Of a DNA stretch of 64,000 nucleotides, positions 9,209-63,379 are shown piece by piece (the stretch's first letter is position 1; each line of letters starts with the position of its first letter). A program made the translations under genes and the position numbers. The notes under the pieces were generated by a model that did not search any database, was not told the origin of the DNA, and saw only the letters and a list, made by a program, of their open reading frames with translations. The DNA is taken from positions 15,811 through 79,810 of IMG/VR virus record IMGVR_UViG_3300047551_002099; one strand, 5' to 3'. This DNA is from a virus.

Positions 9209-9235
9209 TTTAGTTAAGCTGTACAACCCTTTTGG

Positions 9236-9266
9236 AAAGCACTCTATACTAGTTATAGAGTGCTTT
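9236..9266 (+). terminator. intrinsic terminator-like hairpin after the tail tube gene
   Basis: Perfect 13-bp stem AAAGCACTCTATA-CTAGT-TATAGAGTGCTTT. Confidence 0.7.
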
Positions 9267-9280
9267 GAACTAATTTACTA

Positions 9281-12466: not shown

Positions 12467-12469
12467 CCC

Positions 12470-29492: not shown

Positions 29493-30152
29493 ATGCCTGA
29501 GTCTAACCCCTACAGTCCGATTCTGCCACCACCCCAACCTAGTATCTGGCCCGCTACGTCCGAGGCTCAAATTCTGCAGACGGTAGAAACCCGGCTGACC
29601 TACACGCCTATTGTGGTTCAGTTCTTATCCCCAATTCTGAACGAAGACAGCTCCCCTTACACAGATAAACAAGGTAAGAAACGTTACGCTCTTCGGATTA
29701 GCTGTCCACCCAGCAACCGTCCCGGTGAGTGGCAGTACATCCCTGATAGTTATTACTATGAAATCCCTGACGATGGATTGCTACGGCTGCAGCTAGTCCC
29801 TTCTGACCGTTACTTGCCGATTGGACGTTATGTTGTAGAGTACTTCCGCATTGGTAAGAAGTTACCTGTCTTAACGCAGCGTTGGGTTGTTCCTAAACCC
29901 CCACCAATGGGAACCTATTCTTTCACTTATGAACTCCAACCTCCAATTCTTCCCGTAGATGTTTGGAAGGTTACCAGTGTTTCAGCAGGTTATGAATGGG
30001 TAAGTAACTACAACTCACTGACTTGGGGCACCCCGCCGGCGCTAGGTGATGTAGTTAACGTTCGCTACCAACGCGCGGTCACCCTTGATAAGTTAATTGA
30101 CTATAGTTTGAATAACACTAATATTAAAGAAACTGACCGAGTTCGATATTAA
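29493..30152 (+). CDS. hypothetical protein (probable virion or tail assembly protein)
   Basis: 219-aa ORF between terL and the giant gene. Confidence 0.6.
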   Translation: MPESNPYSPILPPPQPSIWPATSEAQILQTVETRLTYTPIVVQFLSPILNEDSSPYTDKQGKKRYALRISCPPSNRPGEWQYIPDSYYYEIPDDGLLRLQLVPSDRYLPIGRYVVEYFRIGKKLPVLTQRWVVPKPPPMGTYSFTYELQPPILPVDVWKVTSVSAGYEWVSNYNSLTWGTPPALGDVVNVRYQRAVTLDKLIDYSLNNTNIKETDRVRY

Positions 30153-30157: not shown

Positions 30158-33100
30158 ATGATTCAGTACGAAACCAGCGTTGACGGTCGTCTTAAGTTTA
30201 CACTCAACGACCAATATAGGGAGATAGCCCGTCAAGAGTCTGGTGGGAATATGTCGCTGCGGGGCACAACCAATAGGGAACAGAGTCCCTATGGTGTGGT
30301 CGCTTATAAGCACGACACCCGTAAGTATAGTGATTTCGTACAGGGATTAGAAAATCTGGATGTAATTCAGTTTGCTGCACCGTTTAACAACGTCCAGAAA
30401 AGTTTGTCTTCCCAGCCGAATATAGCTACCAACATACTTGAAAGTGCTTACGAAAACATTGGGTTAGTTCAGCGGATGTTCCCATCGGAAGTTGGGATGT
30501 TAATGCGTACAGGGAAGCTCAAGTCGTTGTTGCACGACCAAACCTACTTTAAAAGTACGGTGCAGCAACCCATTGGTTTTTACGACCAGCAGGAAACCGT
30601 TATAAAGAACCAATACCAAGCGTCCCGACACCAGAATAAAGATGGGTCTAACCCGTTGATTATTGGACATGACCCTTTAGAGCTGCAGCACGCCAAAAGT
30701 ACGGAAGGGTTATATTCTAAAGAGCGTTATCAGCAGATTAAAGAAGAGTTTGCGGCTAAAGGTTTAAAAGAGCCTGTTCCTACTGGTAAAGCGCAATTCA
30801 CTGGCGCGATGTTTACAGACTTAGCTGTTGGTGGGCTGTCTTTGAGTGGTTCCGGTGGGGTTCTTGGTCAGTATGAAGACTACTCCATTGGGTTTGAAAA
30901 CCCAACAATTGTTGATTGGATTAGCGAATTTAGAAAGACTGGTCTTGAGAAGGAATATTTTGTACGTGAATCAGAAGCCGCCCGCGGGGTTAAGGTCACT
31001 GGTAACTTGTCTATTTATGAAGAGCGCAACAAGCAACTTCGAGACGTTGCCGAAATTCTTAAAATCGTAGACCCCAAAGGTGAAAAGGGTCTAGCCCAAA
31101 TAACCGTTGGTAGTCCTTCAATGGACTGGAACGAGTTTGCCAGAGACTCTAGTTCTAAGGATGCCCGTCAGAAACAAAGCGTAGGCACATTTATTAAGTT
31201 GCTGCAAGAAACCGCTAAGTACGGCTCCAAGAACGTTTTGATTATGGACCCCAGCCGGATTAACATCCCGGAGAATGAACAGCGCCGGCTAAAACGAAGT
31301 ACATACATCGGAAAGTCCATTCGGGGTAAAGCGCAGCATAGCAACACGATGGGTATTACAATGCGGCCCATCACAGGTTTAACCCCAGAGCAAACAAAAC
31401 TACTTGAAGCCAAAGGGCTGTTGGAGAAAGCGAAGACCGGCGTCCATACGTTGAACGTAGGTAACGCCCGACCAACAGGTAACTACTCCATTAACCAGGA
31501 GATAATTATTGACATGAACAAAGCGGACGCTGCTACCCGCGCGGGCGCAGCTTTCATTGAAGCAAACATAGCCGCTAGTCATGTCGCGTTCTTACCCCGC
31601 CGGGATATCGCTAAAGAAGGAATTGCAGGCTCGATGCTGCAGCAGTTCTATATGCCCACTTTTAAAGACTCTCAAAAGAGTGGTTTTACCCAAGAGGGCC
31701 TGTTACCGAACATGCCCTTATCTATGCCCCAGTCGTTCTTCCGATACTTCAAACCAGGGACTAGAACTCATATCTATAGCGACCGGTATCGAGCGCTAAC
31801 TGGAAAGTATGCTACAGGGCTCCAAGGGGATGTGCTACGGGAGTTAGACGCTAAGTTAAGCGACCCTGGGCCTGGAAATCAGATTAACTACTTCCTGCGG
31901 CAGCGTGACTTATACGAGCCAGGCAAAGGCATAATCGGGACAGCTGCTGCCACGGTTGGTCGGTTTATTGATACAGCTACTGGTTTTTATACCATGCAGG
32001 CCATCAAGGCGCGGGAGTCTGGTCAGTTAGGGGGTTCGTTAAGAGAGCTATACGAAAAACGCCAGTACGACCCTTACGACCAAACAGAAAACCGTGGGTT
32101 CTTTGAAAACTTATTGACTAAGACAGCTGGGACGTTATCTGCCACGACGACGGCTATGGCGGCTTACTTTGGGGTAACCCATGCTTACACCATGGCGCGG
32201 GCTCAGATCGAGCAGGTCGGTGTGGATTATGTACTGGAGTCTATTGCTAGAGGGCACACAGAAGGAGTCAAGAGTTTATTTATTACCCAATTACTAGACC
32301 CATCGCACCAGGAATTAATCCTAGGCGCTAGCACTATTTATAACGCCGATATTCCCCACCTGACGGTGCGTAATACCGGTACAGCTATGGAAGCTTACTT
32401 CAATTTAACTGTTAACCGAAGCTTACAAGCATTACAACATACACAATATGCAGGAATAATCACTGACGAGATGATTGAAGCTGTAGCTTCTAGTGACACC
32501 TTCGGTGACTTTGTCATAACTGATAGTAATGTCACTCGGCTCAACAGCCAAATTATGGGGGATTCTTTTGAAGCGGTTATGGACCCCACCAGCAATAAGC
32601 GGACGATGGCAGCAGTGGTGACTCGTAAGTTGAGTCAGAAACTGGCTGCTTTACCGGAGGGTGCGGTTATTAGCGAAAGTACTATCACGCCTTTGATTGA
32701 TGACATCTATAAAGAGATGGGTATCGACCGGCAGTCTGGTTTGATTGATTTGGGGCGGGGTACAGATAGCCTTGACATTAAACGGGGAACTCAACCCGCT
32801 GGCTTTAGTAATCTAGCTGGTGTGCGCCGAATGGACTCTAGCAACCTGCAGCACATGTTTCTGCCCTTGCTAGATGACATGGTCTTTGACAAGGGTGCTA
32901 AGAAATATCAATCAGCCAAACAGAACTTACTACGGCTGGCTCAGTCAACCCCTGCGTTGACTTATAAGAATACTGCCAATAACATCGCCGCGGCGTCCGA
33001 CCTTCGTATTTATAACTATGGTTATGAGCGGATGCGTCAGCTGGCGGAAGTCTTTGACGAGTTAGCAACCCACCTACCTGCTAATCCGCTGATGTGGATT

Positions 33101-36100
33101 AAACCCATCCGGGAAGTGTTTGCTGGGTCTCCAACCACTGGTGCAACGACTGAGCAGACAATCGAGCACGGAGCTATTACAACGACTCGAGCTTCTTTTA
33201 AAGATTTGATTGGCCCTGGCTTTACCGGCTTAATTAATATCCAAGGTGAAATCGTCCGGGAAGTTGGTCGTTCAATGAAGGTTGGATTGACGCAACAGCT
33301 GAAAGATAAGTTTGAGCTTCTTCAGACCAGCCGTGCGGTTGAGCGAAGTGAGGCCGATTTAGTTAAGCAGGTCGCCCGGCACGGAGACGTTGAAAGCTTT
33401 ATTAATACTATTTGGGGTAATGACGTTGGGGATTCTATGTTCCTAGGTCATGTTAACCGTCAAAGACGTTATAACCAACTGCTGCGAAACCAACGTAAGG
33501 ACTACGACGAACTACTTAACGCTGATACAGCTAACCCAGCCTTTAGCGGTCTCCGCAAAGCGCTTCTAGGAGTCGGTACGGTCATGATTGTTGACCGGCT
33601 GTTTGACGCGTATGTTCTCCGCCCGCAGGGTGTTGATTACTTTGATTCAGTCATGTCTGATGTTATTGGTAGTCGCAGTCCTAAAGCTGGAAGCGAAGAA
33701 GATGCTAAGTGGCAGTCGTTATATGACACAGAATACAGTAATGCGATACCGAGTATTATTAAGTATCCCGCGGCGGCGGCTGGTTTTTTTGTTGGTGGTC
33801 ATTTATTACCCAGCTACGAAGCCACCGATAGCTTGGTCTATGAAGCAGTTAGTAAAAAGTATGGAGTTGCCGCGGTTAACACGCTTATGTCAGAAGCTGC
33901 TGGCGCTGCGTCGGATGATGTAGCAGATGCGCTCAGACTTTCTCCGAAGGTTATTAGAAGTAAGTTCGGTACAGCAGGGGCTTTGCTGGGTGCATCGGCG
34001 GCGTTGATTGGCTCCCAGTTAGCAGTTAACTACCTATCCGCTATCAGTAAGCCAGTCATCCGGGGATTAGATAATCTTTTCGGCGGGCGGTGGCGTGAAG
34101 AAGAATCCGGTCTAGATGTTGACCCAGTTAAAGGAACTGCAGCGTCTGCCTTAGCAAATATCGTGCAGTATAGCGTCCAACGTCAGAGCGTTAACTATCA
34201 GAAAGGTTGGGGTGCCACAGCCGAAGATAAGACTGATGTTTATCTGTTAAACCTAGCGGCGCAAGGCTTGATGCAGTCGCGGTCAAAGCCAACGCAGATG
34301 TTCTACCCATTTGCAACGCAGATTGCATCACCATTCTTCCAGTTTGCGACGGTCGCAAAGGTTGACCCTGGAAAGAACATTATTCAACTTAACACGGGTT
34401 TCCAACTGTTCCCTTTGTTGGGAGCCGGCTTAATGCTACCGTCTCCAATTACGCCGAAGGTTCAATACACCGCTCCTTTAAGTAACCGAGCGATTGCTAA
34501 CTATCTGAAGAACTACCCAGAGGGTATTATTATGCCGGGCCAGCCCAGTACCATGGCCCAACATCAAGAGACCGAAGCTTTTGTCAATATGCAAGAGCTT
34601 AGTAAAACAGGCTCGATGCTTTTGGGTGGGGGTGTTAACCTATCCTTTGACGGCAAGCCTTTGGTATATATGGCGATGCTCGGCGCTGCTAGTGAGTTTG
34701 CTAAGAGCGGGGTAGACCGATTCTTAGCTTATAAAGCAGAAGAGCAGAAATGGTTATACGAAAAACGACAGCCCCTATACCGGGAATTACAGAATTACGA
34801 GACGTTATTTCACGCGGGCAGAGTTGGTCTGGATACCTTAGATAGAGTGTCCCGGGCTGCCTACTCTCTGTCAGTGATTATGCCTAACTACCTAGCTAAA
34901 GCGGGCTCAGCATTCTTAGGGGCGTCCGGTGGTACGATGCACCAGCTCGGCCCGTTTGCCCGGAAAGCCGCGCCCTTTGCTTTAGCATTTGGTCTGCTAG
35001 GTGCTTCTTTCCGTCTTAATGATAAGGCTATGGAGTCAGAGCTACCTAATTACAGTCGTCTGCAAACTATGTTTAAGCAGAAGCAGTACGAAGGGCTGAC
35101 CCATGAAATGATTAAAGCAGACGCTATTAATATCGGTCAGGTCTTCGTCGGAACTGGTTTATTAGGAACGACTATTCTATCGACGGGGGCCTTTGAGTCA
35201 GCGCGTAGTTTTGGTAACGCTTACAACATTGTTGAAGCAGGCGGGCCATCGACTTACATTCAGCGGCAGAAACACAAACTCTACAGCATGTGGTTGGAGC
35301 ACCTTCAAAATCAAGGCGAAGTGTTAATGCCTAGCTTAGAAGGACAAACAGTAACGTCGTTAAGTAAACGCTCTGTCGCAACAGCAGAACAAGCATTAGG
35401 GGTTTACGGAGAGATTAATCAAGCAGTGGGTAGAGCTGGGCAGATGCAGCGCCGGCACTTAATGAAAGCTGCTAGTCAAATAGACTTACCTTTAATCAGA
35501 ACTGCTCCGACCCGTTTGGCTATGGCTGCTCGCCGGGTAGCGCCGGTAATGGTAGGGGCATTAGCCGTCGCTCAGGTACTAGCGACAACAGAAGGTTTTA
35601 AAGATTCACCTTGGTTATCCTTACTGAAGAACTTTACCAGTACCGGTTCTAGCGAGTATTCCAGTGAGCAGCGGGCGATGCTGACTAAACTTGGCATCAA
35701 CCAACCCCGTTACCAGCCGAAAAACCTGGGAGACGCGTTTAACAACGTTAGGGATTATGTTGTTAGCTCAGCTTTGTTACCTTTTGGCGGGAATACTTTT
35801 GGGGTTTACCAAGACAATCCTAACCCCTTTAGTCCCATTATCGGGCCGTTGGGATTGTCCTTAGGTTCAGAAGATGAAGCGCGGGTTTATAGTCAATCTC
35901 AATCTGTAGCAGCTGATATTAGCGGCTCTTTATATTTAATGCCGGCGATGACTAATGAGTTGGCTAACGCCATGAACCTTGGCCCGCTGCTTAGCTACGC
36001 GAAGAAATTAGAGAAGCGACCCGGCGCGGCTAGCTTAGCTAAAGCTTTAATCCGGGGTGCTGGTTTACGAACAAAGGCTGCTAAGTTTAAAGGCGGACCC

Positions 36101-45100: not shown

Positions 45101-48100
45101 GTTGTCGGTAGCGCTGCATTAATGGGTTACGGAATCTACTCGCTAGCTGACCAAGGCTTCAAGGTTGGGGGTAAAGCCTGGGAGAAATTCGTCCTGAAGC
45201 GGAAGCGGACGGTAGAAGAACAGAAAGCCTATGAGCAACAAAGCCAAGTGTTATCAATGGGCTTTGGCGTTGGGACTTTTGTCTATGCTGGCTACAACCA
45301 AATTAAGAGTCTTCAGGGGGCTCGTCAAGCGGCTAGCGTAGTCAACCAAGCACCGGTCGTTCCGACTGTTCCCGTTCGCCAGGCAGTAGATGTAATAGAT
45401 GATGTCGCTCCGAGAGCCCCCGTCAGCCCGGCTAGAAGTGGGGCAGTGCTAAAGACCGCTGTACCGGCTGCGGTAGCCACCCCTAAACCGAATATGCTTG
45501 GAGCCACTGGCAAGAGCTTTGCGCGTAATCTAAACCCTCGAAGCTTAGTTAAGAACCCTCTAGCTTGGCTGACTGTCGCAGAAGCCGGTATAGGGGCGGT
45601 AGATGATATGTACGTTAAGAAGAAGTCTTGGCAAAAGACGTTAGTCAACCGGGGCGGACAGCTAGCCTTCGGTTTGTTAGCTTCTGCGGCAGTAGGGACA
45701 GCAATGGGGGCTCTGGTCGCCCTCGGTGTAATTACAATGCCGGCATGGTTAACTACCGCGTTAGTTATCGGTGGGTTAGCCGCAACAGCTTGGGCAGTCG
45801 CTCCTCAGGTGGCTAGTATCTACGGCAAGGTTAAAGAAGACTTCTCGAGTCAGCTAGAGGATAGTAAGACTATCGCTAGCAGAATGGACCTTAATTCTAG
45901 AGAGCAAGCTTCGGCTCGTATCTCTAGTAGCGTAGCGCTCCGGTCGGATGCGACGACCTCTATTAAAGTAAACGCCCGCGCTAGCAGAGATTTTGTTGGG
46001 TACGGCGATCGCCGAGGTGCTAATAAAGAGTTAGACTTACTTGGCTCGCCAGTAGCTGAATTTTCCCCTATTCCACACGTTCCGCTGCCCTCCTCACAGC
46101 AAGTTATTAATCAGGTTAATAAACCTAATAGAACTACACCTGCTGTAGTCCCAATTAAACCACGCAGCCAGCAAAATATAACTTTTATACATAAAGAGTC
46201 TATCTCTGACTCTGACGTACAAGGTTATCTTGTCGGCAAAACGGTAACTAGGGATTTCGATAATATTACTTATGACAACTCCGGATTTAATACTGCTTTG
46301 TACGAGGGCGCTCGCTACAGAAAAGGTTCTATTTCTGGTGCCGTTTATTTAGGTCCATTAGGAGTCAACAGTAGTAATGCTAAAGGAGAGGGTTTTGCTA
46401 GGTATTACGATAAAGATTCTAAGTATCAGTTTGAGGTTGATACTAAAACCAATAAGATATTTAAGATATTCCCTTCTGGCTCGAAGAAAACATTATCTTT
46501 ACCTACTGGGGTGGAGTTTATACAGACTACGGAACCTGGTGTTACTAATACAAGAAGAATTATAGAAGAGATAAATAATAGCAACCGGCGTGTTGTCGGC
46601 ATTATCGGACATGGATTTTTAACGACAGGCTATTCAACCTACCGGCAGAAGGATGGTTCTTATAAAGAGGCTCGTATTGGTAAAGAGGAAGCTTTACGTA
46701 TGAGTGGTGTTTACGTTGACGCTAAAGGTGTGACAAATATAGTTCACGGGTTAACAGAAGAGAAGCTGGCTCAGCTTAAAAGAGATAAAGTCAAGTCGGT
46801 AAGTTTATTCGGTATAAAGCCTGTAGAGAGCGGTAAACATAGGTATAACCGAGCGTTCCTGGTAACTAGTAAAAAAGGTGAAGTCCAATACGTTTACTTA
46901 CCGCAAGAAGTTAGACACGAAGATACCCGGAAATACATTAAAAAACAAGTTCCTAACTACAAGGATATTGTTCAGTTTGATGGTGATACCTTTGCTGGCT
47001 ATAGTTTAACTGATCCTAAGACAGGTAAGGCAGTACCAGAATCTAGGGGTAAAGTTCCTTATATGTGGGCTCAACCTATATTTCTTACAGTTCCAGATTC
47101 TTCTGTCCGTAAGAAAGATAGTTCTTCTAAGGACAACTCTTTAATAAGAGAAGCCGCTGCTAATAGAATAGGAGAGCTTAAGTCAGAGATGACGGAAGAA
47201 AAGCTAATACAAAAAGGTTACACAGGCACTAAATTAGAGGCGGTTAAAGTGCTTCAGGGGTTGGATTCAGACCTCGCCGCGGGTATTGCTTATCTTTACG
47301 GTGACGTGGCTAGAGTCAATAAAGCTGATTTACTTAACCCAGATATTCTAAATGAGGCTTTAGGTAAGCCGTTAGCCTCTATGTTTTCTAGGGGGGCACA
47401 AAAAGTCTGGACGAGTGGAAAAGAATGGCTTTCCGGTGTAGGTCAATCTCTAACTAACTCTTTAACAAGGGCACCTATTATCGGAGACCTATTCTTTACA
47501 CCCGCTGCTAAAGCTGGAGAAATCCCTTACGACTTAATGAGCCAGCGCCAACGTCAAGAGGCAGTTGACAAGGAAGTCAAGCGGCGTTCTGCTGGCAGTC
47601 AATATAACCTGAAAGCTATCCAAGGTAAAGAACAGAAAGTTGCTAAGCAGATAGAACGCCCGCGGGCTTGGTGGCGGTCGGAGGACGAAGAAGTACCGTG
47701 GTGGCAGAAACTCTTTAATTTAGCCGCCGGGGCTGTCAGTGTGACTATCAGTGGTATCGGTAGTCTTTTAAAAAGAACTTGGAACTTCCTTTACAAAACT
47801 GGGGCTTCTATCAGTCAAGGTCTTTCCCAAGCTTTGGGAGGGGTTGCCGGTGAGGTAATGGGCCCTGCTGGGATGATAATGCCAGTTATGAGTGCTTACC
47901 AACCTAACCTTACGCCTGAGTTTAGAGAAGCCATTAACAAGACAGCGGCAAATATCGGCATACCGGCTGAGTGGTTAATTGGTATTATGGCTTTTGAAAC
48001 TGATGGTACGTTTAATCCAGCTGAGCCCAACAAGATGGGTAGTGGCGCGACCGGACTAATTCAGTTTACGCCTGCAACGGCACGTAATATGTTCGGTAAA

Positions 48101-51100
48101 TCGACAGCGGAGATGGCTAAGATGAGCCAAATTGAGCAGTTAAAGTATGTAGAAAAGTACTTTAAAGCTCAAGTCGGTAAGAAAAAGTTAACCACGTTTA
48201 CAGACGCTTATATGGCAGTCTTATGGCCAGCTGCTATTGGTAAAGGCGATAACTACACTTTGTTTAAAAGGGGGACTGACGCTTATACGCAGAATGCCCC
48301 GCTAGATATAAATAAAGACGGTCGGGTAACGGCGGGTGAAGCGTCGGCTAAAGCTAAGGCGTGGCTACCTGGAGCCCAACGAACTTCTTACGCTATCGTA
48401 GGTGGAGCCTTTGGTTTAGGCCCAAACCGCGTAACTGAAACTTATATAACGGAAAAGCGCGGAGTTTCAGATCAATGGGGTGGCCCTCGTGGTGGGCGTA
48501 AACACGCTGGTCAAGATTTCAATGTGCAAAAGAATACTCCTTCACAAACATATTTAGGTGGGATTATCACTCGGGTTGCTTATCAAGCCGGTGCGGATTT
48601 GTACAATAATTACATTGATATTTACAACCCTCAATTAGGTGTTGTAGAGCGTATTGCCGAGTTCGGTAACCGACGCTTTACAGAAAAGGATATTGGTAAA
48701 TACATTCCTCCAGGAACGGTAGTCGGTATTGGTAGCACCAGTGGGCCTAGTGTCGTACACCGGGAAATCCGCACTGACCTCAACGCTCAAAAACAAGGCG
48801 GCTTTGGGTATAAGGGCACCGTTGACTACCTTAAATATTTAGAAGAGCGTGGGATTATACGAGTTGAGCAAATTAAAGGAAGCCCAGCTAAAAAAGTTAT
48901 TCCGCTAGCTAGCCCTATTGTTCTACAAAGCTCGTCAGGTCAAACTCAATCGCAGCAGGTTATTAACCAAGTTCAAGGGCCTTCTACTCAATCCGTGTCC
49001 TCTCCACAAGTTCGTAAGCAGTTAGTCTCTAGCTTGAAGACTAGCTCCTTTACGCCGTTGTTGAATTTAATGTTTAAGGGAGAAGGTGGCATCGAGTCGA
49101 TTAATGTAATTAGACGCAATGGAGACCGTACCAGCAACTACTCGTCTACTTTCCAACAACAGTTTGGTAAGAGTGCGGCTGACACAACGTTGGGTGAAAT
49201 TAGAGCGCGGCAGAGACAACGTGGTACGGTTACTAAAACTTTAAAAGATGGTCGGAAGGTTAGCTACGACGAAATCGGTGCGGTCGGCTTCCCACAACTT
49301 ATTGGGGCTACCCTTAACGATGCTATGTACGCGTTGGGCTTCTCGGAGACTCGGAAGTTTAACCAGCAAACTCAAGAGCAGTTGTTTAAGTACTTAGTAA
49401 TCATAAAGCGGGCTAACTTGGGCGCTTATCTATTAGGGCTGGAAGGGTCTTCCTTAAAAGAAGCTCGTCAGGACTTGGCTCGGGAAATAGCTTCGGTACC
49501 GTTGGTTTACCCTGAAGCTCCGTTGGCCCAGTTGCAATCCAGTCGGATTAGTAATATTAAAGACGAGTGGAAAGCTAATCAACAACGGCAAGCAGGTCAA
49601 AGTCTATACCATGGTATTTCTGGAAACGTGGCAAGGGTCTCCGGCGCTGAGGCAGATAAAGCTATTGAGCAGACCCGTCAGCTAATCGCTAAGGACCCAG
49701 CCCTCAAAGCGTTCTTACAGAAGCAGTATCAAGAACAACAACGGTTACTCGCTCAGCAGTCTGCTTATCAGCAACAGCAGTCTCAACGTAACGTTAGCTA
49801 CGTTCCAGGCGTTGGGGCGGGTAGGTCTAAAATCGTTACTAACCCGGCTAGTGGTGTTGTGACTTTTAGAAATGACCCTGACAGCCGTGAGTTTGTAACG
49901 GGTAGTGATATCCAAATTGGAGGTATCCGTAACGGCGTGCCAATTTGGAACCCCATCCAAGGATTGACCCAGGTTAAGCCTAATAGCTTCCAAGGTAGAG
50001 GCAGAGGTAGAGGTGGAGACGGTTGGGGCAACGTAACCCGGTACAGGATTGACTTAGGTAACAACCGGGTCGTAGAAATGTTAGTTGGGCACGGAGACAG
50101 GCCCTTTGAAAATTACATGGGTCAAGGTGGTCTTGTACCATTCGCCTTACTTGGTTACCAAGGGAATACAGGGCACGCAACAGGACCCCACGCTACTACT
50201 TCTTATAAACCGGTTAAAGGAACTAACGCGACTGCGGCTGACGCAAGATTAGTTGAACGCATGGTTCAGAATGCGTGGACCAGTAAAGGATCTTGGGTAC
50301 GTGTCAACGGAGAGTGGCGTTTGGTTAAGCTGAACCAGGCTCAGCAGATGGGATTACTTAATGGTACTCAACCTTCGGTTCAACCAAGTCAAACGGTTAA
50401 ACCCCAACCAGTTAGTCAGCCTGCTCGTAGCCAACAGCAACTCAAGCAGTCTTACCAACCTGCTGGCGACTTTAAACAAGTTAAAGCCACCTACTACGAT
50501 CCTGGTTTTCACGGCAAACGGACAGCCTTCGGAACTATCTACAACCAAAACGAGATGACTGTCGCCGTACCCCGCGACCGCCACAATCGCCCTATCATTC
50601 CGTTTGGTACTATTTTAGAGGTCGTTAACCCAGCTAACGGTAGACGAGTTTACGTCAAAGTTACTGATACCGGCTCGTTTGGTAGTATGGGCCGTGGTCT
50701 TGACTTGAGTTTAGCAGCAGCCCAAGCTTTAGGAACTATTCAAGCAGGAGTTGCTAATGTCCGTTATCGTGTTGTCAAGTCAGCTCCTTCTACAAAACCC
50801 CAACAGAAACAACAGAAGGGTCCAGTCTTAAATTTACCCACGATTAAACCTGCTGATTATATACCGTTAGTTCCTACAGCGCCTCCGCCGCCGTCGCCCT
50901 CACAACCGAAGAAAAAGAAATTTAACTTGCTTGATCCAAGTACTTGGTTACGAAGTGAAACTCCAACTGACCAAGCTATTTCTGCTTCAGTAATGCCTTC
51001 TAAAATGCCTTCTAATGTTCGTCAACTAAGGTCGGCTATTCCAACAGCGCCGGTAATGCTTGCACAAAATAAATCAACCTTTATTGATGACATTATTCAA

Positions 51101-53758
51101 ATAAATAATAAATACGTTCCTAAGGGAAACGTCGATAAAGACTCTATAGAAACACTAGAAGAGCAATACAACAAATTGTTCGGTGTCAATGTTGACGTTA
51201 GGGATAATAACGAAGAAGCAGTAGCCGGAACAGCGGCTTACTTCAGCAAAAAGAAAAATGAACCCTATATTTGGGTGTCGCCTACCTTAAAACAAGACCC
51301 TGACTTACTGAAGGTTATTTTACCTCATGAATACCTACATGCTACACAAGATGAGCATAAAGCAAAATCTAGTAAGATTACTAATGATAAAGACTACGCC
51401 AGTTATTTAATTAAAAATCTTAAGATTGCTGAGTCCCTTGAAAATCTAACTGCTGAGGAACGTTCACGTGTTTTACATGGGTCTATACTTTCTAGTGCTG
51501 TTTATTTAGCTAATGCAGTAAAAGCAACAAGCACTACAGACTTGCTTAATGTAATGGAGAGTATTGCTAAAGATAGAGAAAATAATAAGACGGAATTTGG
51601 TAGCAGGGGTTTAGCCTACAGCATACTTAGCGAATTGGCAGCTTACGGTCTACAAGAGTCTATTGCAAAGGCAAGTGGAAGCAAGACCCGCTTAACAGCT
51701 GAAAAGCCAGATGCAGATATGGCTTCTTATACCAGGCTTCTGTTCCGTATCATGAAAACTTACGGAGTAGATATAGAAAAAGACCTGCTTAAAGTCCCTA
51801 ATTCTAATAAGGTCAGTTCTAATCAAGGTGTGTTAATCGCTTCTGCCAGGGTGTCAGATATGGGTATGCCTATTATTGTGGCTGACTCAAGATTGAAACC
51901 TAAACAGAAGCCGGTTCCTGTATCTTTCCTACGTCAAGTTACTGGGGCTACTCTAGAGTCTCTTATCTATTCAGGTAAGGGTATTAATCAAAGCTCAATG
52001 AAGGTGCTTGAGCAGCGACTTAATAAACTGTTTAATACGCCCGGGCTCAAACTTCAATATGAATTCCGAGACGGTGGTGCTGGTTCTTACAGCTCTTATT
52101 ACAATCGAATTCGGGTTAACGCAAAGTATAACAACTCTGGAGATATCCCTTATATGGTTGATACCATAGTCCATGAATATACACATGCCCGCAACGACAG
52201 ACTGTCTAAACAGTATAGTGGTATCCAAAATCCTAAAGAGTATGCAGAAGCAATTAATAAAGCTTACAACATTAAAGCTCAGATGGATCAGCTTTCGGAT
52301 GCTGAAAGAAAGTCAATCTTTAATAGTGCCATTCTTTCGACTATTAGTTCGATTGAGCAAAGATTCGATGAAGTAGGCGCTAAAGAAGCTACTTCTTTTA
52401 TACAACTATTGGAAAGACCAGATTTAGCTAAAAACGATAAGGAACTCGCCAAGTTTTTAAATGAGTCTACTCGGTTTGTCTTTGAGCGTTTCTTAGACGA
52501 GATATCCGGGGCTGTGATGGGTGGTCAAGCTGCCAAGATTGTAGGTGGCAACATTGAAAAGTATGATCTTACTAAAGAAGAAGGACAATTTGCAGCGGTA
52601 CTAAATAAAGTTTTCAACGCCTACGGGTTTTCGTTGGCAGATAATGTTTATGGCGGTCCTGCCGGTGGAACTGCGGAACGAGGTATGCTACGCCGGATTG
52701 CCGAAAATATTCCTATTCTTGACCTGTTCTTTCCCCCTCCGGCTGTAGGGGCCACGGTTTCCCCGGTTAATGCCCGCAGACGGCTTAGTAAAGCTCAACG
52801 TGCAGCTGAAAGGAACAAGAACAATAAGGATAATGTAGTCTATAAAGAGCAAAGATTACCTTTATGGAACCCTAACGACATCTATACTGATTCGTCGGCG
52901 GTGCCTGACCCAACTTCTATCTATAACCGCTTACCTAAACCAAAGGCCCCTGCAACGGCCAGTAACGTCTGGGGAATGCCTGGACACCGCCCAGCCCCGA
53001 CGGGTAACTATCATGATTATGGTAAACGACCGCCTCAAAATCCAAACCCTGTATGGGGAGGCCCGGGTAGTCGTCCTGAACAGACAGGCAACTACCAAGA
53101 TTGGGAACGGATACCCCAACGCGACCGGCCTACGCCACCGGTACCTACAGTACCCGGACACCGCCCAGAGCCGTGGGATATTCTTCCTCCATTAGGGAAT
53201 ATCCCCGGCGCTGTGCATCCGTTGGATAAAGGTAGAAAGCAGAAAGATGACTTTAGCATTCTTTGGCAGAAACGTAAGCTTCCAGTACCGGCTCGCCCTA
53301 AACAATATCCTGAATCAATTAAAGACCAAATTAAGGTTGCTATTCCAGGTTTGATTGTTGCAACTGTTAGTGGTGGGGCTGTAGTAAAAGGGGGGTTAGA
53401 CGATGACTTAATCAGGTTTGCTCAAGAAGCTGAAGCGGCTGTGAATAGCGCGGCAGCAGCGGCTATCCAGTTGGTTCAACAGGCTCAAGAAGATAAGGCT
53501 AACGCTGTGTTATCTTTTGAGCACCCGATTACTGCCGCTGCTGTTCGCCCTATCTATCAAGTAGGTCAAGAGTTACGAACTAAGAAGCGGCAGTTAATGG
53601 CGGTGCCTGATAATCAAGACAACGCTATTTATATTAGCCAGCAGGTAACTGTCCATGCTATCCAAGCTCAGTTAGCTAACCGGGATGTCAAGGTGCCTGT
53701 TATTCCCCAAGATGAAGCAGCTTCCCAATCCCGAATACCTAATACTAGGGCCGACTAA
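30158..53758 (+). CDS. giant 7866-aa tape-measure/DNA-delivery-like protein with multiple peptidoglycan hydrolase domains
   Basis: Uninterrupted 23.6-kb ORF with a long Ala/Gly-rich body and many hydrophobic helices. SLT-like IMAFETDG...GATGLIQF (~47920-48360), M23-like HAGQD...HRE (~48460-48860), lysozyme-like KGEGG...GAVGFPQL (~49040-49700), second M23-like GH...QGNTGHATGPH (~49880-50290), RlpA/DPBB ATYY...VTDTG...LDLS (~50474-50776), HEYLH (51326) and HEYTH (52172). Confidence 0.8.
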   Translation: MIQYETSVDGRLKFTLNDQYREIARQESGGNMSLRGTTNREQSPYGVVAYKHDTRKYSDFVQGLENLDVIQFAAPFNNVQKSLSSQPNIATNILESAYENIGLVQRMFPSEVGMLMRTGKLKSLLHDQTYFKSTVQQPIGFYDQQETVIKNQYQASRHQNKDGSNPLIIGHDPLELQHAKSTEGLYSKERYQQIKEEFAAKGLKEPVPTGKAQFTGAMFTDLAVGGLSLSGSGGVLGQYEDYSIGFENPTIVDWISEFRKTGLEKEYFVRESEAARGVKVTGNLSIYEERNKQLRDVAEILKIVDPKGEKGLAQITVGSPSMDWNEFARDSSSKDARQKQSVGTFIKLLQETAKYGSKNVLIMDPSRINIPENEQRRLKRSTYIGKSIRGKAQHSNTMGITMRPITGLTPEQTKLLEAKGLLEKAKTGVHTLNVGNARPTGNYSINQEIIIDMNKADAATRAGAAFIEANIAASHVAFLPRRDIAKEGIAGSMLQQFYMPTFKDSQKSGFTQEGLLPNMPLSMPQSFFRYFKPGTRTHIYSDRYRALTGKYATGLQGDVLRELDAKLSDPGPGNQINYFLRQRDLYEPGKGIIGTAAATVGRFIDTATGFYTMQAIKARESGQLGGSLRELYEKRQYDPYDQTENRGFFENLLTKTAGTLSATTTAMAAYFGVTHAYTMARAQIEQVGVDYVLESIARGHTEGVKSLFITQLLDPSHQELILGASTIYNADIPHLTVRNTGTAMEAYFNLTVNRSLQALQHTQYAGIITDEMIEAVASSDTFGDFVITDSNVTRLNSQIMGDSFEAVMDPTSNKRTMAAVVTRKLSQKLAALPEGAVISESTITPLIDDIYKEMGIDRQSGLIDLGRGTDSLDIKRGTQPAGFSNLAGVRRMDSSNLQHMFLPLLDDMVFDKGAKKYQSAKQNLLRLAQSTPALTYKNTANNIAAASDLRIYNYGYERMRQLAEVFDELATHLPANPLMWIKPIREVFAGSPTTGATTEQTIEHGAITTTRASFKDLIGPGFTGLINIQGEIVREVGRSMKVGLTQQLKDKFELLQTSRAVERSEADLVKQVARHGDVESFINTIWGNDVGDSMFLGHVNRQRRYNQLLRNQRKDYDELLNADTANPAFSGLRKALLGVGTVMIVDRLFDAYVLRPQGVDYFDSVMSDVIGSRSPKAGSEEDAKWQSLYDTEYSNAIPSIIKYPAAAAGFFVGGHLLPSYEATDSLVYEAVSKKYGVAAVNTLMSEAAGAASDDVADALRLSPKVIRSKFGTAGALLGASAALIGSQLAVNYLSAISKPVIRGLDNLFGGRWREEESGLDVDPVKGTAASALANIVQYSVQRQSVNYQKGWGATAEDKTDVYLLNLAAQGLMQSRSKPTQMFYPFATQIASPFFQFATVAKVDPGKNIIQLNTGFQLFPLLGAGLMLPSPITPKVQYTAPLSNRAIANYLKNYPEGIIMPGQPSTMAQHQETEAFVNMQELSKTGSMLLGGGVNLSFDGKPLVYMAMLGAASEFAKSGVDRFLAYKAEEQKWLYEKRQPLYRELQNYETLFHAGRVGLDTLDRVSRAAYSLSVIMPNYLAKAGSAFLGASGGTMHQLGPFARKAAPFALAFGLLGASFRLNDKAMESELPNYSRLQTMFKQKQYEGLTHEMIKADAINIGQVFVGTGLLGTTILSTGAFESARSFGNAYNIVEAGGPSTYIQRQKHKLYSMWLEHLQNQGEVLMPSLEGQTVTSLSKRSVATAEQALGVYGEINQAVGRAGQMQRRHLMKAASQIDLPLIRTAPTRLAMAARRVAPVMVGALAVAQVLATTEGFKDSPWLSLLKNFTSTGSSEYSSEQRAMLTKLGINQPRYQPKNLGDAFNNVRDYVVSSALLPFGGNTFGVYQDNPNPFSPIIGPLGLSLGSEDEARVYSQSQSVAADISGSLYLMPAMTNELANAMNLGPLLSYAKKLEKRPGAASLAKALIRGAGLRTKAAKFKGGPSQSDMQAVSSPELQMALTRRYDRLRNLSWQTSGELMMDVIGEFQRSGRIISDYRDGRIDGTPLNKTTAADTMIYDTLGKMRIVPIGSDGSFRLPKKTTERDLLKFIRTMTAQGAGFGEGVRLEASEDPADIMYGRSQDRGGIPVLSYFGGLFNYAFNSFYDKDTDLLTPDSSNIVGATLMAGSALVLGASFIGTSVSTVIQLAGSLAALSEYGTISDAKTSVRDLRMSVVKKLKQSSFALSSGGGPAIIRPRAHGYSRVLTPAHDIAEETLEQINLKFTGNTAFNRYTSGNALETIVTEEFGNVSRKLANQYSTVESLSDFIVQEVDVLNAQLGDQLNVVVGGESKSIASIFTPGSEAIQGIDSKALTEINQILVSGKHKQTQALEIERVLLNSFHRNLGLITAEGQFVNDGKLPAHQQSAKTQYAKEAAKQAVEQQAAALTGEVTPTYDPSIGFLRSKIQEKGYSGLIAEGTGGALRAAGELINLKAYYEVLSYTAAMGTTDQFERRRASQAAAQNTVQAFGLIIPMQYALGAVRRHPAIAMTVALGAAVAGGVALQNKGFRRFLEKTTRPVFSFLDTYAYKPAVQGLAGMYEGLAKFTPLPQLLRPVTAIFDPIFSGMRRAVQDDPALSMLANFFVPEGVEDFYRRNALLKTRMTPWGDSYEMYSKAEVGQYRAARLTAKRRRARTAQAGIDEDLLHPFLMGRSADVQSISLFEERYLGGDGRIMEQFQTERLTSNLMMMAIRRRQGLVDQHVGGSYMRQPYYKENVHHHFATVAALGTYSYAQTGDVFSAPVNQATRGLEKLYNLHAEIMNRLGPEAGPIIKRTLAGAALGYLAGAQFSHFGETEDERRRNAAIGGLAGSAIGGSTTLFLGPHFAARTEYILSRLGRNPFFRGIAGKAVAFGSAVGNVAKATFKGLGAFANKSFPYASFWGLSTAATYSNYDAAVNWVDGEDPAKKHPLYNPWVKLGISTGVGAVVTLAGYGAAGSQFTSGALAAGIGKSAAALGTAGGYGANWLLSSFLINFMLSNPYTGAAPRALAKTIYDRFGLGRDEDFGNFYNTGVLTSAAVVGSVTPWLSQKTHEDYITRLQRQLGYTDVDADGRAQRAVAELDELKRVLAAVEGTSGAVVAASPESKLQQLGIAPLVGPYNHEYVDEVIQQGIAEKRGRMSLVESLIDAQVQRGFLHNTLRSTKGILKATGHIGTLGFGYVLKGLAKTRRNLGLGFTIMGAGTAGGYLFSQLTANDTDSGAQLETTVSTLGGTYIAAGLYGAFGRHPDQVDVAGTQVIQRLTNWYTQKFGAGPDAPRYQPFRAAWRSLPRKFRRNTRYNFNRGWTWLKERFRDPRSSEAFPDGFTFGRSNFGQQFMQLKDKALPVAAFSIDVLNLYTSTSQINNLKYARSQADFMKAYSSYSSVVATTTFTSLMSLFARNASFSSFAMSTLQMSQISYAAGMRRSDYEYANAVDDPTAFQADKQKDFLMAGGVAGLSLVSAATSYARAGNQLPFQSRIAATLGRRVPFVLQGGSKFAAIADFAALPVAQTAVTGYEIQRIASDRNQKFGYSTNVATDAARNQVDLWAAFLFSVSAMALSRRPTTNSGLWFGKVIPGLTTGGVALAKDAFVPRLQYKLTERFREAGITNTYAQNVITRKAAKSASDNYWLTLGLSTAAAGAIFVLSRGRASKPMLLSLPAVTTSGVALYNYESTLSSEIEKRKAAGLGGLTKDDMVAYREWQQSGAIIPEAWKDSNQYRNWMIHRKDQQRRWDNFSANFFKSNRSFEGLGTQRIQNDWMISKDVLRANAEKMHSKALGKYESNPWATGSAVAGGGVLLGMMLRAQPHRMDGLAVGESFLDKKHIGKLAKFGIGELILPAVAVARKLSTDAEIRKLATRSLSPDVDGEIQFARASADISRMRDVVWQETLLAQMPLGGQSLLGRVTRHAVAHGIGKVIFDFNLNPMLLDLEQKEMLKYVRESRDKNLLTTERMQRALKAQANTNAGTIPALGLTALQMIATGRTNPMLLITGFKDSVLTYVGVKTALQSAIGKKRAVNVLLNKGNTVTGAVPDPTGASNIRAAGVSKEDEESNIVSDYFTNQFMLTTALPRLVPTLVGAGLSMWLNRRAWKHMKGATAKEAPKVEVVEPTQLPVEPEIVTPKPPGGTASKTITTTVHGEPGVTVGPSEPLKPVSTEAVVEPVKPVQPTPPAPTASPKPPQITPTVEPVVSAEPPPVASRQVISKVNPDVITSSGESGSVGLEEQTQNLLNQLRQQDSNPTGINKSKAALNTINNTPVETRQTVAQVTIQRSVHSTEMDSFILDTPDQTKIEKLVNQMRQVQTAFNSLSGQLEPVIRQKTGKDAAQGVIDVWQKRIDQLVEKISASTTNYDALTTYSRFLIELEGSFFMEGNDHFSPLHQGKIGGPVSGFGQANLALLQSALKAPFVQSQQLAFDLYGLSPTQDFTPGMPMPNDTMGLWVFGYVEGSGVDGSGKRDGGVRWNSEAGTSSNFVTLLNRGYHINLYPIIPAEVVTTKPISAPDIKPARPGQSRRLKRNYISPRGVKINKYRDPDSFRQQQASEAQSLSSEKLQANRLNSASSGSVNANSINKTYLETYKESKRQALSTAKTFVSTLSNNELTDFIEDMKSSVEELRSKGLSNLSSDEVNTYGLYSGNLQAAQLDQRRRQQLKPKSQAVEIFKHIRNSVTQDAFNYVITLNDSDLDSFIDETQAKVSQLQQKGFNAFTLEEAADYGMEVGRLRVAKAAKTHRSLEDNTSSTKSSSKQVINKVTNPEPTPAPTVTTPPAPEPIGPGKIETVASAPEITPKPLEQPTPPMLMDMVYGKAKESVTGVISKAKEIGQPFVSKVGQVARGTANQAWDGWTIFDRLEGVDARFGNQGIGGGAGFWTRFGQSAKYELSGRGIVEGGFGIGRNAQTGKVGIQGKGGAMAVAGMGLQLADDILTLDWSRKNFAKSLGTVAKNQATSLAAGVAFGLATAGLGALALSSVPALAALGVVGSAALMGYGIYSLADQGFKVGGKAWEKFVLKRKRTVEEQKAYEQQSQVLSMGFGVGTFVYAGYNQIKSLQGARQAASVVNQAPVVPTVPVRQAVDVIDDVAPRAPVSPARSGAVLKTAVPAAVATPKPNMLGATGKSFARNLNPRSLVKNPLAWLTVAEAGIGAVDDMYVKKKSWQKTLVNRGGQLAFGLLASAAVGTAMGALVALGVITMPAWLTTALVIGGLAATAWAVAPQVASIYGKVKEDFSSQLEDSKTIASRMDLNSREQASARISSSVALRSDATTSIKVNARASRDFVGYGDRRGANKELDLLGSPVAEFSPIPHVPLPSSQQVINQVNKPNRTTPAVVPIKPRSQQNITFIHKESISDSDVQGYLVGKTVTRDFDNITYDNSGFNTALYEGARYRKGSISGAVYLGPLGVNSSNAKGEGFARYYDKDSKYQFEVDTKTNKIFKIFPSGSKKTLSLPTGVEFIQTTEPGVTNTRRIIEEINNSNRRVVGIIGHGFLTTGYSTYRQKDGSYKEARIGKEEALRMSGVYVDAKGVTNIVHGLTEEKLAQLKRDKVKSVSLFGIKPVESGKHRYNRAFLVTSKKGEVQYVYLPQEVRHEDTRKYIKKQVPNYKDIVQFDGDTFAGYSLTDPKTGKAVPESRGKVPYMWAQPIFLTVPDSSVRKKDSSSKDNSLIREAAANRIGELKSEMTEEKLIQKGYTGTKLEAVKVLQGLDSDLAAGIAYLYGDVARVNKADLLNPDILNEALGKPLASMFSRGAQKVWTSGKEWLSGVGQSLTNSLTRAPIIGDLFFTPAAKAGEIPYDLMSQRQRQEAVDKEVKRRSAGSQYNLKAIQGKEQKVAKQIERPRAWWRSEDEEVPWWQKLFNLAAGAVSVTISGIGSLLKRTWNFLYKTGASISQGLSQALGGVAGEVMGPAGMIMPVMSAYQPNLTPEFREAINKTAANIGIPAEWLIGIMAFETDGTFNPAEPNKMGSGATGLIQFTPATARNMFGKSTAEMAKMSQIEQLKYVEKYFKAQVGKKKLTTFTDAYMAVLWPAAIGKGDNYTLFKRGTDAYTQNAPLDINKDGRVTAGEASAKAKAWLPGAQRTSYAIVGGAFGLGPNRVTETYITEKRGVSDQWGGPRGGRKHAGQDFNVQKNTPSQTYLGGIITRVAYQAGADLYNNYIDIYNPQLGVVERIAEFGNRRFTEKDIGKYIPPGTVVGIGSTSGPSVVHREIRTDLNAQKQGGFGYKGTVDYLKYLEERGIIRVEQIKGSPAKKVIPLASPIVLQSSSGQTQSQQVINQVQGPSTQSVSSPQVRKQLVSSLKTSSFTPLLNLMFKGEGGIESINVIRRNGDRTSNYSSTFQQQFGKSAADTTLGEIRARQRQRGTVTKTLKDGRKVSYDEIGAVGFPQLIGATLNDAMYALGFSETRKFNQQTQEQLFKYLVIIKRANLGAYLLGLEGSSLKEARQDLAREIASVPLVYPEAPLAQLQSSRISNIKDEWKANQQRQAGQSLYHGISGNVARVSGAEADKAIEQTRQLIAKDPALKAFLQKQYQEQQRLLAQQSAYQQQQSQRNVSYVPGVGAGRSKIVTNPASGVVTFRNDPDSREFVTGSDIQIGGIRNGVPIWNPIQGLTQVKPNSFQGRGRGRGGDGWGNVTRYRIDLGNNRVVEMLVGHGDRPFENYMGQGGLVPFALLGYQGNTGHATGPHATTSYKPVKGTNATAADARLVERMVQNAWTSKGSWVRVNGEWRLVKLNQAQQMGLLNGTQPSVQPSQTVKPQPVSQPARSQQQLKQSYQPAGDFKQVKATYYDPGFHGKRTAFGTIYNQNEMTVAVPRDRHNRPIIPFGTILEVVNPANGRRVYVKVTDTGSFGSMGRGLDLSLAAAQALGTIQAGVANVRYRVVKSAPSTKPQQKQQKGPVLNLPTIKPADYIPLVPTAPPPPSPSQPKKKKFNLLDPSTWLRSETPTDQAISASVMPSKMPSNVRQLRSAIPTAPVMLAQNKSTFIDDIIQINNKYVPKGNVDKDSIETLEEQYNKLFGVNVDVRDNNEEAVAGTAAYFSKKKNEPYIWVSPTLKQDPDLLKVILPHEYLHATQDEHKAKSSKITNDKDYASYLIKNLKIAESLENLTAEERSRVLHGSILSSAVYLANAVKATSTTDLLNVMESIAKDRENNKTEFGSRGLAYSILSELAAYGLQESIAKASGSKTRLTAEKPDADMASYTRLLFRIMKTYGVDIEKDLLKVPNSNKVSSNQGVLIASARVSDMGMPIIVADSRLKPKQKPVPVSFLRQVTGATLESLIYSGKGINQSSMKVLEQRLNKLFNTPGLKLQYEFRDGGAGSYSSYYNRIRVNAKYNNSGDIPYMVDTIVHEYTHARNDRLSKQYSGIQNPKEYAEAINKAYNIKAQMDQLSDAERKSIFNSAILSTISSIEQRFDEVGAKEATSFIQLLERPDLAKNDKELAKFLNESTRFVFERFLDEISGAVMGGQAAKIVGGNIEKYDLTKEEGQFAAVLNKVFNAYGFSLADNVYGGPAGGTAERGMLRRIAENIPILDLFFPPPAVGATVSPVNARRRLSKAQRAAERNKNNKDNVVYKEQRLPLWNPNDIYTDSSAVPDPTSIYNRLPKPKAPATASNVWGMPGHRPAPTGNYHDYGKRPPQNPNPVWGGPGSRPEQTGNYQDWERIPQRDRPTPPVPTVPGHRPEPWDILPPLGNIPGAVHPLDKGRKQKDDFSILWQKRKLPVPARPKQYPESIKDQIKVAIPGLIVATVSGGAVVKGGLDDDLIRFAQEAEAAVNSAAAAAIQLVQQAQEDKANAVLSFEHPITAAAVRPIYQVGQELRTKKRQLMAVPDNQDNAIYISQQVTVHAIQAQLANRDVKVPVIPQDEAASQSRIPNTRAD

Positions 53759-54224
53759 CTTTATCTTTAGTTTTAGGCTTCTTTTTACTACTTTCAATAT
53801 GCTTAGTCGCTTGACTAGATATACCTAACTGCTCAGGAGTTAAATTACCTCTAGTTAGGGCGTCGGCGATGTTATGCTCCCGGGGAATCCACTGCATACT
53901 CCAACTCTCGAAGCAGCTAAGTAGGTCTTTTGCGTAGGTGAGGGCAATATATAAATGAGCTTGTTTGGTGTTCCAATCACCATTAGAGCACTTAACTACT
54001 AGGTCGCTATCGCCATAGATTTCGATATGCTGAACGCCCATTTGAATAGCTTTGGTTAGTCCTAGGATTAACCCACCGAACTCAGCGCTGTTGTTGGTGC
54101 CTGTGCCCATGAACTGGGAGTATTCGTGTTTTGTATCGTCTGGGGTGATTAAGACAGCGCCAGCGGTGCAATGGCCCGGGTTACTCGGTGCTGCGCTGCC
54201 ATCAAAGAATAGAATTGCTTTCAT
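53745..54224 (-). CDS. rnhA: ribonuclease HI
   Basis: FFDGS, TNNSAEF, GDSDLVV and WIPREHNIADAL carry the D-E-D-D catalytic set. Confidence 0.92.
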   Translation of the reverse strand: MKAILFFDGSAAPSNPGHCTAGAVLITPDDTKHEYSQFMGTGTNNSAEFGGLILGLTKAIQMGVQHIEIYGDSDLVVKCSNGDWNTKQAHLYIALTYAKDLLSCFESWSMQWIPREHNIADALTRGNLTPEQLGISSQATKHIESSKKKPKTKDKVSRP

Positions 54225-62573: not shown

Positions 62574-62577
62574 GGCG

Positions 62578-62665
62578 TGGGCAAAGCGGGAATCGAACCC
62601 GCGACCTCTGTTAGAGGCTGCCGGCTTATGAGGCCGGTCCTAGAAACCAACGCTAGTCTTTGCCC
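62578..62665 (-). tRNA. atypical tRNA with CAU anticodon and long variable arm
   Basis: GGGCAAA/TTTGCCC-A acceptor, CTAG/CTAG D-stem, CCGGC-CTCATAA-GCCGG anticodon arm, GCCTCT-AAC-AGAGGT variable arm, GCGGG-TTCGATT-CCCGC T-arm. No encoded CCA. Confidence 0.85.
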
Positions 62666-63304: not shown

Positions 63305-63308
63305 AAGG

Positions 63309-63379
63309 CACCTCCTGAAGGAATCGAACCCTCGTATTCGGTTTTGGAGACCGACGTTCTGCCACTGAACTAAGGAGAT
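63309..63379 (-). tRNA. trnW: tRNA-Trp(CCA)
   Basis: ATCTCCT/AGGAGGT-G acceptor, GTTC/GAAC D-stem, TCGGT-CTCCAAA-ACCGA, GAGGG-TTCGATT-CCTTC. Confidence 0.95.

Follow-up and report, generated by a model that had tools for sequence, protein, structure and literature searches.

We analysed a window of 64,000 nucleotides (bases 15811-79810 of the 79.8-kb IMG/VR virus contig IMGVR_UViG_3300047551_002099, CheckV completeness 64%), in which a single ATG-to-stop frame on the plus strand, 30158-53758, encodes a protein of 7866 amino acids, hereafter P0001. The reading that we favour, while giving it somewhat less than an even chance, is that P0001 is a virion protein equivalent to a tape measure, which is expelled through the tail and opens the envelope for the phage DNA, and is not a simple ruler. 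Taken together, gene position, absence of cysteine, hydrophobic segments and wall-cutting domains suggest a virion protein that would exit via the tail and act in the envelope. As no tape measure was found behind the tube gene or by family search in this genome or a relative, the giant is the probable candidate for an ejected tape-measure equivalent.

From these features we infer the following mode of action. P0001 would ride in the tail lumen of the virion, the conserved C-terminus lying at the hub, and would leave through the tail at infection. About eight hydrophobic segments of its helical, cysteine-free body may then insert in membranes and form or line a passage. The lytic transglycosylase (LT) and the RlpA-type DPBB domain near the C-terminus are predicted to cut peptidoglycan, possibly together with M23-like and zincin-like peptidases, and the host envelope would thereby be opened for the phage DNA.

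Position of the giant gene

The giant ORF is real. Across 33900-53850, unbroken Logan contigs of two runs from a single freshwater metagenome sample agree with the window, showing no indels and no more than two substitutions. Identical fragments were also present in a run of a different study, and the identical protein is present in the protein database on a second contig, of 92 kb. As these contigs agree without indels, the giant frame is not an assembly accident, and the single ORF of 7866 residues described in an initial annotation of this DNA was borne out.

The gene order of the contig starts with a Mu-type portal, a head protease, the major capsid protein, a sheath protein of 1198 aa and the tube (8428-9189), continues with a hub-like protein of 1061 aa, a spike-like protein of 628 aa, gp25-like and gp6-like baseplate proteins and a collagen-like fibre, and ends with the large terminase gene terL, an ORF of 219 aa and the giant. 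The giant is thus the last gene of the plus-strand structural block; the downstream genes are reversed, RNase H being the first. No ORF separates the tube gene from the hub-like gene, in agreement with the initial annotation, which had noted the absence of a tape-measure gene between tube and hub and the location of the giant after terL. Among named ESM Atlas clusters, the 1061-aa protein lies closest to GpP/gp44 baseplate hubs (score 0.95, 10 of 10 family-bearing matches concordant), and a spike-type OB-fold motif is suggested for the 628-aa protein by reading of its sequence. Within 9281-14356, the hub-like protein carries long Gln-rich and coiled-coil inserts and the spike-like protein has a Gly-rich C-terminal half. 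Ma-LMM01 gp108 was considered as a homologue of the hub-like protein and rejected, the similarity not being significant.

The late position in the structural block, after terL and a small ORF, is shared with Microcystis phage Ma-LMM01 and Microcoleus phage My-WqHQDG, and supports the assignment of P0001 to the virion. In these phages giants of 2898 and 4151 aa, respectively, follow terL and one or two small ORFs. The terL of the window is 31% identical to that of My-WqHQDG (for Ma-LMM01, see Table 1). The small ORF holds the same slot in both phages, and similarity of the 219-aa ORF to its positional counterparts is borderline (E 0.02-0.08). A frameshifted chaperone pair upstream of the giant was rejected, as there is no overlapping frame.

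The same observations bear on the proposal that the giant is a non-virion factor, made in the infected cell for lysis or envelope remodelling. Wall hydrolase domains combined with hydrophobic segments would suit such a role, but the gene closes the block of structural and packaging genes and has the same orientation, and a protein of this size without cysteine does not resemble known endolysins or holins. We therefore regard this proposal as very improbable.

Searches with the tape-measure families PF10145 and PF20155 gave nothing in this contig or in a 96%-complete relative of 216 kb. The other long ORFs checked in the relative appear to encode a repeat fibre (from reading of the sequence), an Ig-rich tail protein and a helicase, and this also supports the identification of the giant as the tape-measure equivalent.

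A family of giant phage proteins

Word-based search detected three giant relatives of P0001, namely P0002 (6860 aa, 56-57% identical), P0003 (6943 aa, 47-51% identical) and P0004 (5029 aa, 34-35% identical), of which P0003 is encoded on the relative mentioned above (a 216.5-kb IMG/VR contig, 96% complete). A profile of aa 500-1500 gave 36 matches against 1.84 billion protein representatives, 33 of the 36 at E < 1e-10. Nearly all of these representatives are 3000-7900 aa long, and the complete-looking members of the family range from 2882 to 7866 aa. Among 50,697 GenBank phage records the family is confined to Ma-LMM01-type Microcystis myophages and the Microcoleus phage, always under the label 'hypothetical protein'. 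Ma-LMM01 gp120 (E 1e-137) and the Microcoleus giant (E 1e-59) are tied to the family via P0036. Like P0001, gp120 (YP_851134) and the My-WqHQDG protein (WOL31340) contain no cysteine in addition to lying behind terL, and weak collinear BLASTP similarity was detected at residues 532-673 and 949-980; they differ in being far shorter and strongly diverged. The giant gene is not discussed in the literature that we found on these Microcystis and Microcoleus phages. A cyanobacterial host of the present phage is suggested from its relatives only.

No match was found among GenBank phages by DNA search of the region encoding the enzymes or by tblastn of aa 1-2900, nor in IMG/VR scans with the first 1200 aa, P0023 and P0007, and IMG/VR scans with terL and the core alignment returned one related contig only. 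Shorter relatives of aa 6285-6745 were sought by word-based search, and none was detected. In the ESM Atlas, aa 1-2040 gave a best score of 0.83 and no named family.

Relatives with 47-57% identity differ by about 1000 aa in length through gain or loss of whole enzyme modules, which supports the doubt expressed in the initial annotation that P0001 is a simple ruler. In a classical ruler the whole length of the tape measure sets the length of the tail, and such a role is unlikely for P0001. It would agree with the failure to find any other tape-measure candidate and with the helical nature of the body, and tape measures of about 5000 aa are present in very long-tailed Thermus phages. On the usual scaling of 1.5 Å per residue, however, 7866 aa imply a contractile tail of about 1.2 micrometres, and the tails of close relatives differing only in enzyme modules would have to differ by about 150 nm. 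The model of the core, described below, also consists of folded-back helices of 10-50 residues and not of one long coiled coil.

Architecture of the body

The initial annotation had described a helical, Ala/Gly-rich body with many hydrophobic segments, and this description is supported by structure prediction, composition and hydropathy. Helicity was judged on one modelled segment, aa 450-1500, for which AlphaFold2 with a 19-row alignment gave a mostly helical model (pLDDT 63.9, pTM 0.54), in which the helices fold back on each other and are accompanied by one three-stranded sheet. The body contains about 10% Ala and 9% Gly, with local maxima of 14-15% Ala and 14% Gly. Eight segments of P0001 exceed the Kyte-Doolittle threshold of 1.5 in a 19-residue window, a level typical of membrane helices. 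All seven family members that were scanned have between 7 and 12 such segments each, whose positions are similar in the three closest.

The core resembles no known fold. The best Foldseek match in the PDB had an E value of 0.13; in BFVD the best E was 0.009 with a TM-score of about 0.07, the nearest models being mostly tape measures but none significant; and the best VIA-align hit (Z 7.2) was confined to a single helical hairpin. PDB sequence search with aa 1-5000 gave nothing below E 0.05. Accordingly, what stands of the proposed tape-measure-like body is a long helical chain for which no rival candidate was found, while no match to a tape-measure family or fold was obtained.

Around this core the family varies (Table 1). 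Most of the distant members carry an N-terminal tandem-HKD PLD-like domain (PF13091, 49-62 bits against a cut-off of 27), and both the two HxK...GSxN motifs and the Pfam match are present in P0036, P0023, P0032 and P0014. Neither P0001 nor any of its five closest relatives has a detectable domain of this kind. A degenerate version at the N-terminus of P0001 was rejected, as there was no Pfam match and the profile of intact members gave E 0.14. Residues 1500-2800 are common to a subset of the family, and variation extends throughout after about residue 4100. PDB sequence search with the insert at aa 5230-5700 gave nothing below E 0.05, and no family or structure match was found for it.

Identity to P0002 and P0003 rises abruptly in certain stretches. 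It is 92-93% to both proteins for aa 4801-4950, against about 50% in the adjacent sequence, and 83% and 93%, respectively, for aa 4951-5100. Similarly, identity to P0003 reaches 94% for aa 6601-6750, in the module around the second M23-like segment, against about 50% in the surrounding protein. The corresponding stretches, 44555-45460 and 49958-50407, are either under very strong constraint or were recently exchanged as modules between phages.

The linker motif SQQVINQV occurs at two module borders, 46097-46117 (aa 5314) and 48953-48973 (aa 6266). It is also present in P0003 at aa 5935, and the variant SQQIITRT is found in P0002 and P0003. The motif may represent either a site of cleavage or a scar of module exchange. 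The first possibility would agree with a polyprotein processed by the prohead protease or by the HExxH modules of the chain itself, an arrangement compatible with any of the other readings. A head maturation protease is indeed encoded, two zincin-like modules are present in the protein, and Pro-rich linkers lie between the modules in addition to the repeated motif. On the other hand, the repeated linker may merely mark sites of module exchange, and the persistence of an uninterrupted frame of 3000-7900 aa in all 36 representatives hints that the single chain matters. Processing of this kind seems to us improbable.

In solved tails, the C-terminus of the tape measure is attached to the spike or hub (PMC10966104). 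The final stretch of P0001, about 150 residues, is conserved in five family members although the neighbouring enzyme modules differ, as might be expected if this end were held at the hub, and this conservation supports the favoured reading.

C-terminal enzyme modules

The initial annotation had listed SLT-like, M23-like, lysozyme-like and RlpA/DPBB domains and two HExxH modules behind the body. The SLT-like and DPBB domains were firmly recovered by sequence comparison, the M23-like segments and the SprT-like HExxH modules were weakly recovered, and the lysozyme-like domain was not recovered. The LT domain has an AFET glutamate motif that lines up with the AFET of 9udh, and matches phrog_196, 'baseplate hub' (E 9e-36). 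The same region stayed under the cut-offs of the Pfam families SLT (16.6 bits) and PF18013 (17 bits). The DPBB domain scored 45.8-49.1 bits with PF03330 against a cut-off of 28.8, and matched PA4485 (4avr; E 5.7e-11) and baseplate hub gp15 of myophage A-1(L) (PDB 8KEA; E 1.2e-5). With the full RlpA model TIGR00413 the score was 74.6 bits, below the cut-off of 82.15, indicating that the DPBB domain is present but that the protein is not a full RlpA.

The first M23-like segment matched the M23 domain of A4 gp28 with an i-E of 0.042, and scored 13.7 bits with a profile of the canonical M23 domains of the sister proteins. The second gave 7.8 bits with this profile; the histidine of its HxxxD motif is missing and its HxH is replaced by H-A-T. 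Neither segment matched PF01551 (M23), even when scanned singly. The two M23-like domains are thus represented by weak profile matches, with no Pfam match and with altered catalytic motifs. For the putative lysozyme-like domain, aa 6285-6520, no lysozyme-like fold appeared in the results of Pfam and PDB sequence searches. The possibility that this module is a diverged copy of the LT was rejected, since the profile test against the LT domain was unsupportive. The AlphaFold2 model of aa 6085-6760 (pLDDT 30.6) was too poor for fold search. Both HExxH motifs are present as described, and the SprT-like family PF10263 passed its cut-off of 25.6 on the piece containing both modules (28.7 bits) but not on the single modules (15.7 and 16.8 bits). 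PDB sequence search with the HExxH region gave nothing below E 0.05.

In the compared set, P0001 alone has the LT, the first M23-like segment, the insert at aa 5230-5700 and the HExxH pair. The sister proteins carry canonical M23 and VanY domains in place of the P0001-specific enzymes.

In myophage A-1(L), hub gp15 unites lysozyme, endoglucanase (DPBB-type) and peptidase domains against the cyanobacterial wall (PMC10966104), and its DPBB-type domain lysed Anabaena cells (PMC10966104). Wall enzymes are thus carried by the hub in A-1(L) but by the giant in the present phage, in which no lytic domain was detected in the hub-like or spike-like protein by Pfam and PHROGs, a further point for the tail-lumen reading. 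Among solved proteins, the one closest to the LT and M23 pair is gp28 of the short-tailed cyanopodophage A4 (PDB 9K2V), an ejection protein in the capsid pre-ejectosome (PMC12002296). Gp28 is helical and unites an LT of this type with an M23-like domain (63 bits, E 9e-17), and the LT and the first M23-like segment of P0001 match it as two separate stretches. Differences are that gp28 has 1058 aa and is packaged in the capsid, and that its M23 precedes the LT, the reverse of the order in P0001. The similarity is limited to the lytic modules.

Cysteine exclusion and a second giant

Not a single cysteine is present in P0001, P0002 or P0003, and the 36 family representatives contain 13 in about 170,000 residues. 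In 26 further ORFs of the window, cysteine accounts for 96 of 11,884 residues (0.81%), a frequency at which about 64 would be expected in P0001. Such a lack of cysteine fits a protein that travels unfolded through a narrow channel or works outside the cytoplasm.

A second giant ORF without cysteine was found upstream of the window (L011:2-9217, minus strand). It is divergent from the portal gene and runs to the contig end with more than 3072 aa. Its homologue in the 216-kb relative (G001:C1:126233-141571) has 5112 aa, also with no cysteine, and carries a canonical HSK...D...GSAN plus a second HxK, a PLD-like arrangement with a Pfam score of 22.6 bits, below the cut-off. A DYDGD motif stands at aa 3816, and no RNA polymerase match was found by Pfam and PDB searches. 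Paralogy between P0001 and the upstream giant was rejected, there being no similarity by BLASTP, phmmer or the family profile. The homologue has one hydrophobic segment only, against the 7-12 of each of the seven scanned members of the P0001 family, a difference in favour of a membrane-inserting role for P0001. The initial annotation mentions neither the family nor the absence of cysteine nor this second giant.

The same relative encodes a third giant of 4239 aa (G001:C1:103066-115785, minus strand), in which AAA and PIF1-like helicase domains are present and the cysteine content, 57 residues, is normal. Its ORF of 1531 aa (G001:C1:39986-44581), with repeats of LPxGSxNLYYT..RVD.R.GQ.S.NALSDVN, is probably a fibre as judged from the sequence.

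Tail lumen or capsid

Some tape measures with lytic domains, such as those of T5 (Pb2) and of mycobacteriophages, are long, helical proteins with hydrophobic segments and with hydrolases towards the C-terminus, and are expelled before the DNA. P0001 differs from them in being six to ten times longer and in the position of its gene outside the tube-to-baseplate interval, and no sequence or fold match to them was found. Also unlike tape measures of the Pb2 type, it has at least two confirmed lytic domains and several candidates, and most of its relatives add the N-terminal PLD-like domain.

Several points weigh against the favoured reading. Every family member is known from sequence alone. The gene lies outside the usual tape-measure interval, from tube or chaperone to baseplate, and follows terL instead; and Pfam, PHROG and fold searches with the body gave no tape-measure match. 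The tail of about 1.2 micrometres calculated above, the module differences of about 1000 aa among close relatives and the wide range of lengths in the family also count against a tape-measure equivalent. By our own estimate, based on an assumed lumen of 4 nm and 1.21 cubic angstroms per dalton, a tail of about 400-540 nm would be needed to house three copies of P0001 at ordinary packing, which is possible but long. Folded enzyme domains and the PLD-like domain of the relatives would fit poorly into a lumen of about 4 nm. In addition, the closest solved lytic pair, that of A4 gp28, belongs to a capsid-packaged protein (PMC12002296).

This last point leads to the most serious alternative, which we consider possible and nearly as likely as the tape-measure equivalent, a simple ruler being unlikely. 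P0001 may be an ejection protein packaged in the capsid, of the T7 gp16 or A4 gp28 type, the phage having a separate tape measure that escaped recognition. It would then be stored folded in the head, unfold for passage through the tail, and afterwards digest the wall and form a channel. Besides the LT and M23 pair most similar to a component of the capsid pre-ejectosome (PMC12002296), several features agree with such cargo. The giant gene adjoins terL, the second cysteine-free giant flanks the portal at the opposite side of the structural block, and a head maturation protease is encoded. The many folded enzyme domains, together with the PLD-like domain of most relatives, suit the capsid better than the lumen, and with a genome of 216 kb the head of the relative should have room for protein cargo. 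The alternative is weakened by the failure to find a tape measure elsewhere in the contig or the relative, and the likeness to ejection proteins ends at the lytic modules. Furthermore, a contractile-tailed phage needs wall enzymes at the tail tip before the contents of the head can exit.

Implications

Ejected phage proteins with wall hydrolases are already known in general. What is novel here is the family itself, its size, the near-absence of cysteine, the unmatched helical core, the exchange of enzyme modules and the apparent relocation of wall enzymes from the baseplate to the giant chain. How contractile-tailed phages pass the thick cyanobacterial wall is poorly understood, and in this group the wall enzymes appear to have been moved from the baseplate onto one huge ejected chain, with modules exchanged between relatives.

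A bolder proposal, which we put forward as speculative and rather doubtful, is that a single-chain, cysteine-free megaprotein has replaced the ordinary tape measure, combining a substitute for the ruler, a membrane conduit and a swappable cassette of wall enzymes, and that its partner, the second cysteine-free giant with the PLD motif and DYDGD, is injected as enzyme cargo. If this were true, the almost complete lack of cysteine would mark phage proteins that travel through the tail, and such a signature, if it holds, would offer a cheap sequence criterion for finding ejected proteins in other phages. One family member is encoded by Ma-LMM01, a phage in culture, so that its location in the virion, its copy number and its processing are open to bench work.

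Features of the window

The features discussed above are listed in Table 1. Near the end of the window, genes for tRNA-Met (CAT; 62577-62665) and tRNA-Trp (CCA; 63307-63379) are located on the minus strand.

Table 1. Location of the giant ORF product segments and of neighbouring genes (positions in the 64,000-nucleotide window; residues of P0001)
Feature	Residues	Position	Strand	Remarks
Tube, hub-like 1061-aa protein, spike-like 628-aa protein		8428-14356	+	No tape-measure gene between
Large terminase (terL)		27671-29452	+	33% identity to Ma-LMM01 terL; anchor of conserved gene order
219-aa ORF		29493-30152	+	Stop 5 bases before the ATG of the giant
N-terminal region	1-450	30158-31507	+	Conserved in closest relatives only
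Family-defining core	450-1500	31505-34657	+	In 36 of 36 representatives; no known fold matches
Rest of conserved body	1500-4100	34655-42457	+	Hydrophobic segments; glycine-zipper match PF05433 at aa 2808-2849
Pro/Ser/Thr-rich variable stretch	4100-4800	42455-44557	+	Poorly conserved even among close relatives
Gly/Ala-rich hydrophobic module	4800-5230	44555-45847	+	Membrane-like segments inside
Insert	5230-5700	45845-47257	+	Unique to P0001
Lytic transglycosylase (LT)	5916-6071	47903-48370	+	PDB 9udh, E 1.3e-28; AFET at aa 5945-5948
First M23-like segment	6107-6204	48476-48769	+	HAGQD (HxxxD) retained; HxH replaced by H-R-E
Conserved module	6285-6520	49010-49717	+	Common to P0001 and four family members; PHROG match of unknown function
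Second, degenerate M23-like segment	~6560-6690	49835-50227	+	Reads GNTGHATGPHATT; profile match covers 6662-6688 only
DPBB/RlpA-type domain	6775-6870	50480-50767	+	PF03330
Two paralogous HExxH modules, SprT-like	6950-7530	51005-52747	+	HEYLH at 7057, HEYTH at 7339
C-terminal end	7700-7866	53255-53755	+	Kept in five family members; hydrophobic segment 7725-7743
Hydrophobic segments	1136-1154 (in core), 1787-1805, 2155-2173, 2520-2538			
Hydrophobic segments	4953-4971, 5186-5204, 7725-7743

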